From assembly GCA_016187025.1 (NCBI GenBank), contig JACPKM010000001.1, positions 384,055-448,054 of the forward strand: a stretch of 64,000 nt of DNA. Reading direction: 5' to 3'. This DNA is from Candidatus Daviesbacteria bacterium (lineage in GTDB: Bacteria; Patescibacteriota; Microgenomatia; Daviesbacterales; UBA10151). Position numbers and translations under genes: made by a program. This document shows positions 21,612 to 27,374 of the stretch, piece after piece (positions within the stretch are counted from its first letter, which is position 1; each line of letters begins with the position of its first letter). The notes under the pieces are model-generated. The model was not told the DNA's origin and made no database searches. It saw only the letters and a list, made by a program, of their open reading frames with translations.

Positions 21612-21730
21612 ATTAGAAGGTTACTAACATTTACTTATCCAATATCTTGTATATTGACAAGTATTCATTACAATATGTTATGTTAATTACAGAAATCCTA
21701 AACGTATTCGTTTAAGATCTTTTTAATCCC

Positions 21731-22174
21731 TTGAAATGTCCGTTTTGTGGTAGCAATTTAAGCAAAGTAGTTGATAAAAGAGGTGTAGGTACACGAAGCG
21801 AGATTCGTCGTAGGAGAGAGTGTTTAAAATGCTCCAAGCGTTTTACCACATATGAAGCGCTTGCAAAACTTGAAGTATTTGTCGTCAAAAAAGATGGTAG
21901 AAGAGAGGGGTTTTTGCGCGAAAAATTAGAAGTAGGGATTGTTAAGGCTTTAGAAAAAAGACCGGGTTTGGAACAAGCAGGAGCCATTGTTGACAGGATT
22001 GAAAGCAAGATGCGGGTAAAAGGGATGAAAGAAATTTCATCTCAAATGTTGGGTAGATGGGTTTTAGGGGAGTTAAAAAAGATGGACAGGGTGGCCTATT
22101 TACGCTTTGCAAGTGTTTATAGGACATTTAGCGATGTTAAGGATTTTGAAAAAGAGTTAGAAAGTATTTCATAA
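21731..22174 (+). CDS. nrdR: Transcriptional repressor NrdR (zinc ribbon plus ATP-cone)
   Basis: N-terminal 'KCPFCG...C..C' zinc ribbon followed by an ATP-cone. TTG start codon. Immediately upstream of nrdJ. Confidence 0.9.
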   Translation: MKCPFCGSNLSKVVDKRGVGTRSEIRRRRECLKCSKRFTTYEALAKLEVFVVKKDGRREGFLREKLEVGIVKALEKRPGLEQAGAIVDRIESKMRVKGMKEISSQMLGRWVLGELKKMDRVAYLRFASVYRTFSDVKDFEKELESIS

Positions 22175-22177
22175 AAT

Positions 22178-25100
22178 ATGAAAACTAGACAAGCAAAACA
22201 ACAAAAATTAGTTTTACAAGTAGTTACGCTACCTAAAGTAAGTGGAAAAACAAAGCTAAATGGAAAGGTAAATGGACACTTAGGAAAAAATAACCGCTCT
22301 TTTGAGGATAGATTTAATCCCCGCTACTCTGAGATGCCAGTTTTCCCCGAAGGCCTGCCTGAACCGTTATTTTCCGAATCATCAAACAGGATTTTAAAAG
22401 AAAGATATCTTCTAAAGGGAGGAAATTTAGAGGCAGTTGAGACAGTTGCAGAAAGATTCTGGCATATTGCCTATGATATTGCCTCAGCTGATTTTGATTT
22501 TAATGTGTCTTCCAAAGAGGTTTTTGAAACAGCCAGGGATTTTTACACTGTGATGGTAAAACAGCAATTTTTACCAAACTCCCCAACTATTATGAATGCA
22601 GGTAAGCAAAACCAGCTCCAATATTCGGCTTGTTTTGTCTTGCCCATCGATGATTCCATCCCAGCTATTTTTGACACTATGAAATACGCTGCACTTATCC
22701 ACCAGACAGGGGGCGGTTGCTTAAGTGGAGATTCTCGAGTTTGGACAACCTTTTGTGGTATTGAACCAATCGGGACTCTATTTATGCGGGCAACAGTTGA
22801 TGGAAGAAAGGGAATTAAACAGGGTAATGGAGTTGCATATGATGTTTCGGATTTAAACATTAAAACAGTTTCTATGGATCCCGCAACCGGTGCAACAGGC
22901 CTTAAAAAAGTTAGTCATGTATGGGAATATGATGTACCAAAGGACAAACAAGTTCAGGTCACAACAGTTGAGGGGGTAAGTATACAAACAAGCAGTTGGC
23001 ACCCGTTTATGGTAGTCAGAGGAACCCAGATAGTTGAGGTTTCAGCAGAGAATCTAAAAGAGGGGGATGTTATTTTAGGACCTGAAAAAGCAGATGGGTA
23101 CTGGCCTTGGCAAGAGCAGAAAAAAGCAGGTCAGCTTGTAATTGATGAAGATATAGCTTGGCTAATAGGATTTACTTTAGGAGATGGCTCCTTTGGTTAT
23201 GTTCCTGCTTTAAGGCAATACCGGGTACGGTGGTTTTCTGGTACAGAAGATGTTTTAAAGAAAGTACAGATAATACTTTCTAAGAAAAATATTCAACTGT
23301 CGATTCAAAAGGATAAAAGAGGTTTGTTCAGCCTGGCTACTTTAAACCAAAGGTTTGTGCATGATTTACTGGAAGCATGTGGATTGGAAAAATTTGGACC
23401 TAAAGATAATCTAATTCGTGTTCCTGAAATTATTGCTAAATCTCCCCTTTCTTGTGTTCGGGCATTCATAGCAGGGCTTTTAGATAGTGATGGTTATGTA
23501 GCTGAGGATGGAAGTCCTTCCTACTGTACTGTCAGCGGGGCAATGGCAGATGATCTTGCGTCTCTTGTTAGCTTGCTGGGTTTCCGTCCCAAAGTTTGTT
23601 CAAAAGCTCCTTATGGTAAAGGTAAGCAATGTACATACTCTGTTCAGATATGTCCCTTGCCTCAAGTTAACGAATTGGCAACAGAGCTTTCAGCTTACCT
23701 TGCCAATGTAAAACGCCTCAATAGGCTGCAAAGCTCAAGTAAGAAGCAGACAGCCCTACCTTTAGACTTTACTGCTTTTAGGGATGAGTTGGCAAAGTTA
23801 GGGTTAGTCAAAAAAAGATTTGATAAAGTCGGAGGCTCGGGTCCGCTTGCTAAGGAGTTAAACTATTGGGCTTCTCACAGAAGAATTGACAGAAATAGCG
23901 TTTTATCTATAGCCAATGTTGTAGCACCGTATTCTTCAAAACTGGCAGAATTTCTACAAAGGATTGCCAGATGTGGTCATCAGATCAAAAGCGTTCAGCA
24001 AGCAGGTGTGGCAAAACCATATTATGATCTTTCAGTAGAGGACTGGAATACATATGCTGCAGGAACTCGGGGAATGGTTATGATACATAACACAGGTTTT
24101 GCTTTTTCGCGCCTTAGACCTGCGGGCAGTATTGTTAAAAGAAGCGGGGGAGTTGCTTCAGGTCCAGTATCATTTTTGCGCGTCTATGATGCTGCCACTC
24201 AGTCTATTAAACAGGGTGGAACAAGAAGAGGAGCAAATATGGGAATTTTACGGATAGATCATCCTGATATCTTAGAATTTATTAGATGCAAGGCAGTTTT
24301 AGATGAGCAAAACCAGCCAGTGTTTGATGGAGTGAAGGATTTATTGCCTGATGATAACTCTAGAAACTTACTAAAAACTCTTTTGCTGGATAGGCAAATC
24401 TCCAACTTTAATATCTCAGCAGCAGTGACAGATAAGTTTATGGAGGCATATTATAAAGGTGAGGAGTATGAGTTGATTGACCCTCATACCAAAGAAGTCA
24501 CAGGAAGACTTGATGCTAAAGTTGTATTTGATGAAATAGTAGAAAGAGCATGGAATACGGGAGACCCGGGGTTAATTTTTATAGACAGAATTAACAAATC
24601 ACCCTCAAACCCAGTTTCTTCCCTAGAAACAATTGAATCCACAAACCCGTGCGGTGAACAGCCCTTGGCACCTTGGGATGCTTGTAATCTTGGTTCAATT
24701 AATCTGGGAAAGTTTGTTAAAGAAGACGGATCAGATGCGGACTGGGAGGGTTTGAGAAAGGTTACTCATCAGGCAGTTCATTTTCTGGATAATGTGGTGC
24801 AGGTAAATCCTTATACCTTGCCAGAAATTTATGAAGAAGTGCACAAAAACCGAAGAATAGGGCTAGGGGTTATGGGTTGGGCAGATATGCTTTTTAAACT
24901 AAAGGTTTCCTATGACTCAGAGCAAGCTTTAGAGCTAGCAGAAAAAGTAATGAACTTTATCAACGATGAAGGACATAAAATGTCTGAGGAACTAGCACAA
25001 AAACGCGGTCCTTTTCCCAATTGGGAGAATTCCATTTACTCTGATAAAAATAATCCATCTTTCAAAAATAGAGGTGAGTCTTATGCTTACTCAGGCGGTA

Positions 25101-26221
25101 GACCCATTAGAAACTCAACAATTACCACTATTGCTCCAACAGGCACAATTTCTATCATCGGAGATTGTTCATCCGGTATTGAGCCGGTATTTGCTTTAGC
25201 ATATATTCACAGAGCAAAGGGTGATGGAGGGAAAACCGGCAATGAGATGAGGTATTTAACAATTGCCAATAAAACCTTTACTGAAATCGGGCAAAAAGAA
25301 GGATTTTACAATGAGGAACTAGCACAAAAAGTGATGGATCATGGATCAGTTACAGGAGTGGATGATGTACCCGCTGATTGGCAAAGAGTTTTTGTTACAG
25401 CTCCTGAGATTGCCCCAGACTGGCATGTAAAAATGCAGGCTGCTTTCCAAAGATACACTGATAACGGGGTTTCCAAAACCATTAACTTACCAAACTCTGC
25501 CACGCTAGAAGATATTAAAAAAGCTTATTTGATGGCCTGGGAAACAGGTTGTAGTGGTATCACTGTTTATAGGGACGGTTCTAAAACCACTCAGGTTTTG
25601 AATGTATCATCTACCTTAAAGCCAAAAACCCAAGAGGTTGAAGAGGTATCCACTCCAAGTCCGGTTGCCGGCAGGCCAATGGTTTTGCGGGGCAGAACCT
25701 ATAAAGTTGCTACACCGGTAGGGGAAGCATATATTACTTTGAACAGAGATGAAAATAATCAACCGTTTGAGGTCTTTGTGACAGTTGGTAGGGGGGGGAT
25801 GCACACTATGGCAGATGCAGAAGCTATGGGAAGGTTGATGTCCTTGTCCCTAAGGCTTGCAAGGAGTGCAAATTCTGTTGATCCTACAGCTGTAGCGCTA
25901 AAGATTGTTTCCCAGCTTAGAGGAATTGGCGGAGCATCGCATGTGGGATTTGGTAAAGATAGAGTCATGAGTTTGGCAGATGCTATAGCAAAGGTTTTAG
26001 CTGAGGATTTAGCATTAGATGCAAAGCCTGAAGCTCAAGAGATAGAACCGCTACCCTTAAACCTAGTGCAAGAAGAGCCTGCTGCAAATACCGGATCAGA
26101 TGATGTAGTTAGGTCTTCGTCCATGGCTCAAGCTGATCTTTGTCCGGAATGTGGAAATGCAACCTTTGTCAGGGAAGACGGTTGCCAGAAATGTTACTCC
26201 TGCGGGTATTCTAAGTGTTGA
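22178..26221 (+). CDS. nrdJ: Ribonucleotide reductase class II (adenosylcobalamin-dependent, NrdJ) interrupted by one intein
   Basis: Active-site 'NPCGEQPLAPWDACNLGSINL', 'SACFVLPIDD' and a C-terminal Cys4 zinc ribbon (CPECG...CYSCGYSKC). No small subunit gene in the window. Extein about 889 aa after removing the 458-aa intein. Confidence 0.9.
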   Translation: MKTRQAKQQKLVLQVVTLPKVSGKTKLNGKVNGHLGKNNRSFEDRFNPRYSEMPVFPEGLPEPLFSESSNRILKERYLLKGGNLEAVETVAERFWHIAYDIASADFDFNVSSKEVFETARDFYTVMVKQQFLPNSPTIMNAGKQNQLQYSACFVLPIDDSIPAIFDTMKYAALIHQTGGGCLSGDSRVWTTFCGIEPIGTLFMRATVDGRKGIKQGNGVAYDVSDLNIKTVSMDPATGATGLKKVSHVWEYDVPKDKQVQVTTVEGVSIQTSSWHPFMVVRGTQIVEVSAENLKEGDVILGPEKADGYWPWQEQKKAGQLVIDEDIAWLIGFTLGDGSFGYVPALRQYRVRWFSGTEDVLKKVQIILSKKNIQLSIQKDKRGLFSLATLNQRFVHDLLEACGLEKFGPKDNLIRVPEIIAKSPLSCVRAFIAGLLDSDGYVAEDGSPSYCTVSGAMADDLASLVSLLGFRPKVCSKAPYGKGKQCTYSVQICPLPQVNELATELSAYLANVKRLNRLQSSSKKQTALPLDFTAFRDELAKLGLVKKRFDKVGGSGPLAKELNYWASHRRIDRNSVLSIANVVAPYSSKLAEFLQRIARCGHQIKSVQQAGVAKPYYDLSVEDWNTYAAGTRGMVMIHNTGFAFSRLRPAGSIVKRSGGVASGPVSFLRVYDAATQSIKQGGTRRGANMGILRIDHPDILEFIRCKAVLDEQNQPVFDGVKDLLPDDNSRNLLKTLLLDRQISNFNISAAVTDKFMEAYYKGEEYELIDPHTKEVTGRLDAKVVFDEIVERAWNTGDPGLIFIDRINKSPSNPVSSLETIESTNPCGEQPLAPWDACNLGSINLGKFVKEDGSDADWEGLRKVTHQAVHFLDNVVQVNPYTLPEIYEEVHKNRRIGLGVMGWADMLFKLKVSYDSEQALELAEKVMNFINDEGHKMSEELAQKRGPFPNWENSIYSDKNNPSFKNRGESYAYSGGRPIRNSTITTIAPTGTISIIGDCSSGIEPVFALAYIHRAKGDGGKTGNEMRYLTIANKTFTEIGQKEGFYNEELAQKVMDHGSVTGVDDVPADWQRVFVTAPEIAPDWHVKMQAAFQRYTDNGVSKTINLPNSATLEDIKKAYLMAWETGCSGITVYRDGSKTTQVLNVSSTLKPKTQEVEEVSTPSPVAGRPMVLRGRTYKVATPVGEAYITLNRDENNQPFEVFVTVGRGGMHTMADAEAMGRLMSLSLRLARSANSVDPTAVALKIVSQLRGIGGASHVGFGKDRVMSLADAIAKVLAEDLALDAKPEAQEIEPLPLNLVQEEPAANTGSDDVVRSSSMAQADLCPECGNATFVREDGCQKCYSCGYSKC
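22718..24091 (+). mobile_element. Intein with LAGLIDADG homing-endonuclease domain inside nrdJ (458 aa)
   Basis: Inserted between 'HQTGGG' and 'TGFAFSRLRP' of the host. N-terminal splice 'CLSGDSRV', block B 'SSWH', two LAGLIDADG motifs (LIGFTLGDGSF; FIAGLLDSDGYV), C-terminal 'VMIHN' followed by a +1 Thr. Confidence 0.85.
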
Positions 26222-26260
26222 CTTTCTTCCATAAATATCCTATAATATAGTTCCAAAAAT

Positions 26261-26779: not shown

Positions 26780-26837
26780 CTGGATTCCCTTTTCAAGGGT
26801 TAGGGTAGAAATAACCTAAATTTGTTAGAATGTGCTT

Positions 26838-27374
26838 ATGGATCAGAGGGAAAAAGGTTTAGTTATTTTATACACTGGTGAAGGAAAGGGTAAAACTACT
26901 GCTGCTTTAGGGATTATTTTACGGGCTGTAGGATATAAGAAAAAGTGTTTGATGGTGCAGTTTGGTAAGACTTGGTTTACCGGAGAACTGGTTGGAATAA
27001 AAAAACTTTCGCCTTTGGTAAAAATTATCCAGGGTGGAAAAGGTTTTGTTGATATTCTAGGAGATCAACTCCCAAGAGAAAAGCACCAGGAAGCAGCCCA
27101 AAAGACTTTTAATTATTTATATAATGAAACTACAAGCGGAAAATGGGATTTGGTGATAGCTGATGAGATTGTAGGAGCTGTATCAGGTAAAATTTTGCCT
27201 TTGGAGGATGCAGTAAGATTAATCACAGACAAACCAGCAAGTGTTGATTTAGTATTGACGGGTCACAACGCACCACAGAAACTAATTGATTTAGCTGATC
27301 TGGTCACAGAAATGCAAGCGATCAAACATCCTTACCAGAAAGGAGTTTTAGCAAAAAAAGGGGTTGACTTTTAG
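26838..27374 (+). CDS. cobA: Cob(I)yrinic acid a,c-diamide / corrinoid adenosyltransferase (CobA/CobO/BtuR family)
   Basis: P-loop 'YTGEGKGKTTAALG' and overall BtuR-family pattern. The track ORF starts two codons upstream at 26832. Confidence 0.8.
   Translation: MDQREKGLVILYTGEGKGKTTAALGIILRAVGYKKKCLMVQFGKTWFTGELVGIKKLSPLVKIIQGGKGFVDILGDQLPREKHQEAAQKTFNYLYNETTSGKWDLVIADEIVGAVSGKILPLEDAVRLITDKPASVDLVLTGHNAPQKLIDLADLVTEMQAIKHPYQKGVLAKKGVDF

Follow-up and report, generated by a model that had tools for sequence, protein, structure and literature searches.

Ribonucleotide reductase (RNR) is the second most common host of bacterial inteins, with 211 recorded (Novikova et al. 2016, PMC4760082), and the most frequent intein site in RNR lies directly before the thiyl-radical Cys (PMC2677866). 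The subject here is an insert in nrdJ, the gene for B12-dependent RNR, within a window of 64,000 nucleotides (the whole stretch of DNA analysed; positions 384,055 to 448,054 of contig JACPKM010000001.1, assembly GCA_016187025.1) from a Candidatus Daviesbacteria bacterium. We hold with high confidence that positions 22718-24091 of this window are a canonical class 1 'large' intein of Daviesbacteria nrdJ. The described intein that it matches best is PI-PfuI of the Pyrococcus furiosus RNR (PDB 1DQ3; Ichiyanagi et al. 2000, J Mol Biol 300:889, cited in PMC2677866). Purification, DNA cleavage and a crystal structure are reported for PI-PfuI.

PI-PfuI and the window intein are alike in length (454 and 458 residues), in domain order (Hint N-terminal part, two-motif endonuclease, helical region, Hint C-terminal part), in block B (TSxWHPF) and in the C-terminal ...HN. 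They also share an RNR as host enzyme and, if the first Thermococcales intein is PI-PfuI as taken below, the insertion point. They differ in sequence, with no more than about 21-27% identity; in the second catalytic acid, which is Glu in PI-PfuI and Asp258 in the Daviesbacteria intein; and in host, that of PI-PfuI being a hyperthermophilic archaeon and that of the window intein a mesophilic bacterium of the candidate phyla radiation (CPR). By sequence, PI-PfuI (1DQ3) is the best match in the PDB (phmmer, E 1.9e-26, over residues 37-458 of 458). It is also the best Foldseek PDB match (E 1.9e-30, TM 0.78/0.79) of an AlphaFold2 (AF2) model built from 14 alleles (mean pLDDT 83.4, pTM 0.86). The next Foldseek matches are the intein endonucleases TliVMA, PhoVMA, PI-PkoII and PI-SceI (yeast VMA1). 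These share the Hint plus LAGLIDADG architecture (Foldseek E 1e-25 to 1e-8), but they differ in hosts, insertion sites and accessory DNA-recognition regions, and similarity to them is much lower. Further down are the mini-inteins PhoRadA, PabCDC21 and TvoVMA, which match the Hint part only and confirm its Hint fold, and the free LAGLIDADG enzymes I-DmoI, I-Tsp061I and E-DreI, which match the endonuclease part only. Model residues 144-324 fit the pseudo-dimeric alpha-beta-beta-alpha-beta-beta-alpha core of LAGLIDADG enzymes.

Other RNR inteins, listed in InBase as 'RIR1' alleles a to m, likewise interrupt a highly conserved motif of the catalytic subunit and often carry a LAGLIDADG endonuclease. 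Their most frequent site is NP/C (the slash marks the point of insertion), which is occupied in 15 of the relatives considered here. The window intein differs in using GGG/T, and the NP-CGEQ site of its own host protein is empty.

Excision and the insertion point

The nrdJ product passes the NCBIfam equivalog model for B12-dependent RNR, PRK08665, with 970 bits against a cut-off of 961, which bears out the host named in the preliminary description of this DNA. It contains the Pfam domains Ribonuc_red_lgN, Ribonuc_red_lgC and TSCPD. The N-extein aligns to TIGR02504 positions 2-110 and PRK08665 positions 11-125. The C-extein, whose first residue aligns at TIGR02504 position 111 and PRK08332 position 701, comprises the barrel domain, in which no insert breaks the STNP-CGEQ catalytic-Cys loop, the TSCPD domain and a Cys-rich tail.

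Alignment of the exteins to intein-less NrdJ had been set as a check on the insert, and the alignment is contiguous once 22718-24091 is removed. The resulting 889-residue sequence can be aligned with the crystallised T. maritima NrdJ (1XJE/1XJK) without a break at the junction, reading ...ALIHQTGGGTGFAFSRLRP against ...ALITKVGGGVGSNFSELRP; the predicted ligation junction of the spliced protein is ...IHQTGGGTGFAFSR. The 120 closest NrdJ relatives in the database are 67-83% identical to the window protein, apart from its own record. Ninety-eight of them have no insert, and almost all of the 98 show H[QK][TS]GGG/TGF[AS]FS, with small variants; the commonest form is the predicted ligation product itself. 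Hidden Markov models built on intein-less proteins are also contiguous at this point (TIGR02504 110/111, PRK06556 189/190). The empty site of an intein-less Daviesbacteria allele (L008) reads ...CATCAAACTGGTGGTGGT/ACCGGGTTTGCCTTCTCA..., and also GCGGCCTTAATTCATCAAACTGGTGGTGGT/ACCGGGTTTGCCTTCTCAAGACTTAGACCA.

Comparison with catalogued RNR sites, also proposed beforehand, gave a partial answer. NCBIfam PRK08332 is a model of intein-bearing Thermococcales NrdJ with 1684 positions. N-extein residues 119-180 map to its positions 241-301, intein residues 37-458 to 341-700, and C-extein residues 1-67 to 701-767; since the three parts map consecutively, the insertion point is that of the first intein in the model. 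We take this first intein to be PI-PfuI, as it is placed in the Pyrococcus RNR. The GGG/C...HN/TGF junction also occurs in a relative from the Archaeoglobaceae (26% identical). No InBase letter could be assigned to the GGG/T site, as the papers list rir1-a to rir1-m without sequences.

Splicing residues, domains and proposed mechanism

The 458 codons at 22718-24091 are free of stops. Their product starts CLSGDSRVW and ends GMVMIHN, and it is flanked by HQTGGG before and TGFAFSRLRP after; translation shows that the position of the in-frame insert and all the motifs previously named in it are exact. Profile searches of the insert give Pfam Intein_splicing (E 1.2e-16) and LAGLIDADG_3 (E 1e-12) and NCBIfam intein_Nterm (E 1e-9); like the match to 1DQ3, these cannot be put down to chance. 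The parts of the intein and its host gene are listed in Table 1, together with neighbouring features.

Table 1. Coordinates in the window of nrdJ, its intein and neighbouring features
Feature	Position	Strand	Basis
NrdR-box-like palindrome, ATCCAATATCTTGTAT	21637-21652	+	
NrdR-box-like palindrome, TTACAATATGTTATGT	21668-21683	+	
nrdR, 147 aa, Zn-ribbon and ATP-cone repressor of RNR genes	21731-22174	+	List of open reading frames (ORFs); Pfam Zn_ribbon_NrdR and ATP-cone on the identical gene in L001
nrdJ, single uninterrupted ORF, 1347 aa	22178-26221	+	ORF list
NrdJ N-extein, residues 1-180, ends ...KYAALIHQTGGG	22178-22717	+	Alignment with NrdJ models that lack an intein, as far as the junction
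Intein, 458 aa, class 1, Cys1 ... His457-Asn458	22718-24091	+	Translation, Pfam, NCBIfam, PDB match, AF2/Foldseek
Hint N-terminal part, intein residues 1-135	22718-23122	+	NCBIfam intein_Nterm on residues 1-99; AF2 beta-rich
Block A, CLSGDSR	22718-22738	+	Cys1 codon TGC at 22718
Cys13 codon	22754-22756		
Block B, QTSSWHPF, His95	22985-23008	+	
LAGLIDADG homing endonuclease domain, intein residues 140-325	23135-23692	+	Pfam LAGLIDADG_3, Hom_end; PI-PfuI alignment; Foldseek
LAGLIDADG motif 1, LIGFTLGDGSF, Asp156	23162-23194	+	
Cys221 codon	23378-23380		
LAGLIDADG motif 2, FIAGLLDSDGYV (core FIAGLLDSD258G), Asp258	23465-23500	+	
Cys312 codon	23651-23653		
Helical region, intein residues 326-418	23693-23971	+	1DQ3 full-length alignment; AF2 helices 331-336, 351-360, 378-419
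Hint C-terminal part, intein residues 419-458, blocks F and G, KPYYDLSVEDWNTYAAGTRGMVMIHN	23972-24091	+	Pfam Intein_splicing to profile position 155/155
NrdJ C-extein, from Thr+1 (TGFAFSRLRP...), stop codon included	24092-26221	+	Pfam Ribonuc_red_lgC, TSCPD
Sigma-70-like site, TTGACT-17-TATAAT	26218-26246		
NUDIX ORF, 172 aa	26261-26779	+	Pfam E 5e-5
Cob(I)alamin adenosyltransferase gene	26832-27374		

Blocks F and G read ...YYDLSV...MIHN, with Asp437 in block F, the penultimate His457 and the terminal Asn458. The first residue of the C-extein is the nucleophile Thr+1 (ACA at 24092). Splice-junction residues had been expected to recur in homologues, and C1, T91, S92, H95, D437, H457 and N458 are invariant in all 60 complete alleles of the family described below; all complete alleles that extend to an intact C-junction have Thr at +1. 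The endonuclease domain had been described as having both LAGLIDADG motifs with an acidic residue in each. These residues, Asp156 and Asp258, align on D149 and E250 of PI-PfuI, which are presumably its catalytic residues, and each is found in 58 of the 60 alleles. The helical region, which we take to be the positional counterpart of the DNA-contacting 'Stirrup' subdomain of PI-PfuI, is the least conserved part of the intein (65% amino-acid identity).

Two details count against a fully canonical reading. Block B is of the form T-S-x-x-H and not the textbook T-x-x-H, so that the hydroxyl residue three places before the His is Ser, as it also is in PI-PfuI; and Thr is a less common +1 nucleophile than Cys or Ser. 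Nothing was found that contradicts the assignment as an intein.

Two other explanations of the insert were considered and rejected. A bacterial intein-like (BIL) domain does not fit an insert that has His-Asn, a +1 nucleophile and a conserved host motif as its site. A frameshifted or chimeric assembly does not fit a single ORF whose identical protein occurs on independent contigs.

The window copy very likely splices, to judge from these residues. Under standard intein chemistry, the 1347-residue precursor would be translated and intein residues 1-135 and 419-458 would form the Hint domain. Cys1 would form a thioester with Gly-1, and acyl transfer to the hydroxyl of Thr+1 would follow; cyclisation of Asn458, with His457 assisting, would then free the intein. 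An O-to-N shift would restore a normal peptide bond, giving an 889-residue NrdJ reading ...HQTGGG-TGFAFSRLRP.... The freed 458-residue protein would be a double-motif LAGLIDADG homing endonuclease of the PI-PfuI type. Its predicted target is roughly 20-30 bp spanning the GGG/TGF codons of an intein-less nrdJ; after the cut, repair from an intein-bearing copy would copy the intein in.

The allele family, mobility and alternative readings

Alleles at the same site were collected by a word-indexed protein search, a one-genome-per-species scan and an exhaustive profile search, all of which agree. When queried with only the intein, the word-indexed search returned neither the Daviesbacteria carriers nor the query's own protein; a search with the extein recovered both. 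Sixty-one genome loci were returned, and the insert always lies at GGG/C...HN/TG[FM]. The 60 alleles are spread over at least nine bacterial phyla and two archaeal lineages. Among bacteria the family occurs in Daviesbacteria, Blackburnbacteria, Chloroflexota, Armatimonadota, Methylomirabilota/Rokubacteria, Acidobacteriota, Gemmatimonadota, Nitrospirota and Eremiobacterota, and among archaea in Aenigmarchaeota (at 57% identity) and Archaeoglobaceae. The alleles outside the Archaeoglobaceae resemble the window intein in length (455-464 residues), in the splicing residues and in both LAGLIDADG motifs, at 50-76% identity. They differ in host phylum, and the CPR copies form a clade of their own. 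The profile search gave 74 cluster representatives at E<=1e-30. The closest 25 or so are all from RNR at the GGG/T site and include a variant subfamily with Ser+1; remoter relatives are found in other hosts. A literature search found no paper on the GGG/TG allele family in CPR bacteria, and the family copies outside the window appear to be experimentally uncharacterised.

Three of the remote relatives (P0180, P0199 and P0222, E about 1e-31 to 1e-57) are inserted at ...HG/C...[HS]N/ followed by TH, TY or TW. This site looks like the catalytic-His motif of a subtilisin-like protease (HGTHVAG), which would be an unusual intein host. Two loci carry names at odds with their sequences: L010 (CAZYBP010000027.1), labelled 'uncultured Gammaproteobacteria', has a Daviesbacteria-type extein (78% identical) with the intein, and L045 (CAYWDW010000029.1), labelled 'Heliobacteriaceae', has an Acidobacteria-type allele. 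Both labels probably result from faulty binning or taxonomic assignment of the source metagenome-assembled genomes.

Carriage is patchy. Among the 120 closest NrdJ proteins, seven have the GGG/T intein and 15 an insert at NP/C, and none has both. In a neighbour-joining tree of the exteins the seven carriers are scattered, requiring seven Fitch changes. For six of the seven the nearest relative is intein-less; that of the window protein is P0031, which is 9% different over the core. The ratio of nonsynonymous to synonymous substitution rates (dN/dS) of the intein is about 0.1 among the seven Daviesbacteria copies and that of the exteins about 0.04-0.07 (Nei-Gojobori; dS is near saturation and the ratios are rough). 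Within the intein, conservation is highest in the endonuclease domain, whose mean amino-acid identity is 78%, compared with 80% for the extein core. In two pairs of carriers the proportion of synonymous differences (pS) is significantly lower in the intein than in the exteins: 0.49 compared with 0.65 for L002/L003 (difference 0.157, bootstrap confidence interval 0.077 to 0.236) and 0.59 compared with 0.71 for L004/L005 (difference 0.124, interval 0.042 to 0.216). Inteins younger than their exteins are what transfer after host divergence predicts. The other 19 carrier pairs have no such synonymous difference, and sliding third-position identity in the two young-intein pairs gave no sharp boundary of co-conversion.

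The data support the view that this intein family is, or recently was, mobile, and the endonuclease of the window copy is probably still active, given its intact motifs and the behaviour of the family. The preliminary description held that the intein may still be mobile. Purifying selection, patchy carriage and the two pairs with younger inteins uphold this for the family; for the window copy the statement is an extension from its relatives.

It is possible, although doubtful, that the intein splices but its endonuclease is inactive. It would then be a resident and immobile passenger, kept since an imprecise deletion would destroy an essential gene, and its conservation would reflect folding and splicing needs only. 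Several findings weigh against continuing mobility, and those on residence and decay fit such a passenger. The synonymous sites of the window copy are saturated in every comparison, so it gives no sign of recent transfer, and its nearest intein relative is only 76% identical. Its GC content (about 0.41, compared with about 0.40 for the gene) is indistinguishable from that of the host gene, with no GC or skew anomaly to mark a recent insertion, which suggests long residence. Decay has occurred in the family: motif 1 has the substitution D156N in two of the 60 alleles, 262-residue mini-inteins occupy the GGG/T site in Archaeoglobaceae, and four loci are frameshifted. The conservation of the endonuclease domain could in part be a constraint from precursor folding. 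The intein tree also clusters by phylum, with the CPR copies monophyletic and the Aenigmarchaeota nested among bacteria. Against an inactive endonuclease, both motifs and both catalytic acids are intact in the window copy, and the endonuclease is the most conserved domain, at the low dN/dS given above; had it been dispensable, drift or loss, as in mini-inteins, would be expected. The younger inteins in two pairs of relatives and the patchy carriage also speak against a family of residents. Beyond the CPR, the inteins are more alike (52-63% identity) than the exteins (34-55%); from this excess and the clustering by phylum, long-range transfer of the intein is taken to be real but rare.

Two DPANN-archaeal loci, L031 (Ca. 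Aenigmatarchaeota) and L043 (uncultured archaeon), carry inteins that are 56-57% identical to the CPR copy and nest inside bacterial clades of the intein tree, beside Gemmatimonadota. This placement indicates that the intein, or the entire gene, passed from bacterium to archaeon or the reverse.

Three non-catalytic cysteines are strongly conserved in the 60 alleles across many phyla: Cys13 in 59, Cys221 in 56 and Cys312 in 55. Cys13 is missing only from a distant Archaeoglobaceae allele. The three may have a structural or a redox role. If the latter, splicing, and hence the supply of deoxynucleoside triphosphates, might be a conditional switch gated by a cue such as redox state, for example through pairing of Cys13 with Cys1. 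Conditional protein splicing is documented for other inteins, as one source reports for the P. horikoshii RadA intein (PMC4513877), and a functional meaning has been argued for the clustering of inteins in replication-linked proteins (PMC4760082). However, such pairing presupposes that Cys13 lies near Cys1, and the conserved cysteines are perhaps simply structural. The 98 intein-less proteins among the 120 relatives also imply that any regulatory role is dispensable. A switch of this kind is thus very unlikely. Slightly less likely still is its most specific form, in which an ultra-small CPR bacterium would gate nucleotide synthesis by redox or stress, with Cys13 trapping Cys1 as a disulfide and NrdJ maturing only under reducing conditions.

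That the insert does not splice at all, so that nrdJ is disabled or tolerates 458 extra residues while another RNR or salvage is used, is scarcely credible: although splicing is deduced from sequence, any second RNR could lie beyond the 64-kb window and CPR metabolism is reduced, the residues for all four splicing steps are present and invariant, the exteins are under strong purifying selection, the catalytic barrel is unlikely to accommodate a 52-kDa insert in one of its conserved motifs, and the nrdR-nrdJ-cobA gene order is retained.

The host operon, inserts in relatives and wider meaning

The nrdR stop codon is 3 nt ahead of the nrdJ start, so nrdR and nrdJ are probably co-transcribed; their adjacency is kept in relatives. 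A protein identical to the window NrdJ is deposited at NCBI (P0030) as 'adenosylcobalamin-dependent ribonucleoside-diphosphate reductase [Candidatus Daviesbacteria bacterium]', and the same nrdJ gene was found on a Logan contig. The gene order peptidyl-prolyl isomerase, nrdR, nrdJ, cobA/btuR, lon is common to other Daviesbacteria. From the deposited protein and the shared gene order, the window is ordinary chromosomal DNA of a CPR (Patescibacteria/Microgenomates) bacterium.

The NUDIX ORF separates nrdJ from the cob(I)alamin adenosyltransferase gene and is preceded by the strong sigma-70-like site given in Table 1. Of six intein-bearing relatives examined, five have cobA directly after nrdJ, as does the intein-less L009. 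In L008 other genes follow nrdJ, and the L004 sequence ends too soon to judge. Two NrdR-box-like palindromes upstream of nrdR, 31 bp apart from centre to centre, flank a TTGACA hexamer at 21655-21660. In an alignment of upstream regions, a block ACACAATATATTGTATATTGACA...TATCAATATGTTATG ahead of nrdR is kept in seven related Daviesbacteria loci. The conserved pair of NrdR-box-like sites suggests that the nrdR-nrdJ operon may be autoregulated.

Over the whole window, a generic NrdR-box pattern gave matches at chance level only, and promoter and terminator sites were no more numerous than in shuffled sequence. An Rfam scan of the whole window found tRNA-Glu only, with no group I or II intron and no cobalamin riboswitch. 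Pfam found no further intein in ten other ORFs of the window, eight of them among the largest.

Relatives, but not the window, have inserts at the catalytic-Cys site NP/C. Nine close Daviesbacteria NrdJ proteins (P0046, P0085, P0095, P0117, P0124, P0133, P0142, P0144 and P0147) carry a canonical LAGLIDADG intein of 366-373 residues there, in the form C...HN/CGEQ. Others have a Hint plus LAGLIDADG insert that ends in Arg-Gly, at TNP/CGEQ directly before the thiyl-radical Cys, with about 369 residues in Daviesbacteria. Carriers of the Arg-Gly form are P0094, P0097, P0114, P0126, P0135 and P0148 in Ca. Daviesbacteria, and further P0301, P0302, P0305, P0308, P0310-P0312 and P0314. These inserts start canonically (CVTGDTLV, block B TAAH) and end ...YDLxEPxSDTWITEGxVSRG/CGEQ, with one variant ...QLG/C; the Arg-Gly is in exact register with the His-Asn that P0046 and other canonical inteins have there. 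Standard C-terminal cleavage is impossible in them because there is no terminal Asn, Gln or Asp. Nevertheless, the exteins around them seem undamaged, and the motif is also present in Levybacteria, Blackburnbacteria and Anaerolineae. With Pfam Intein_splicing an Arg-Gly insert reaches only 26.8 bits, below the cut-off, and a literature search for inserts of this form at NP/C found no description. They are more unusual than the window intein.

The window intein, though genuine, is an unremarkable representative of a widespread family. On its own it is of little importance, as RNR is among the commonest intein hosts, the insertion point is known and the protein is already deposited. Annotation of the mature NrdJ should read 889 residues. 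As a mesophilic relative of PI-PfuI with Thr+1, the intein is a candidate for protein-engineering screens. For the family as a whole, the occurrence of PI-PfuI-type alleles across at least nine bacterial phyla, the CPR and DPANN archaea could mark gene flow among uncultured groups.

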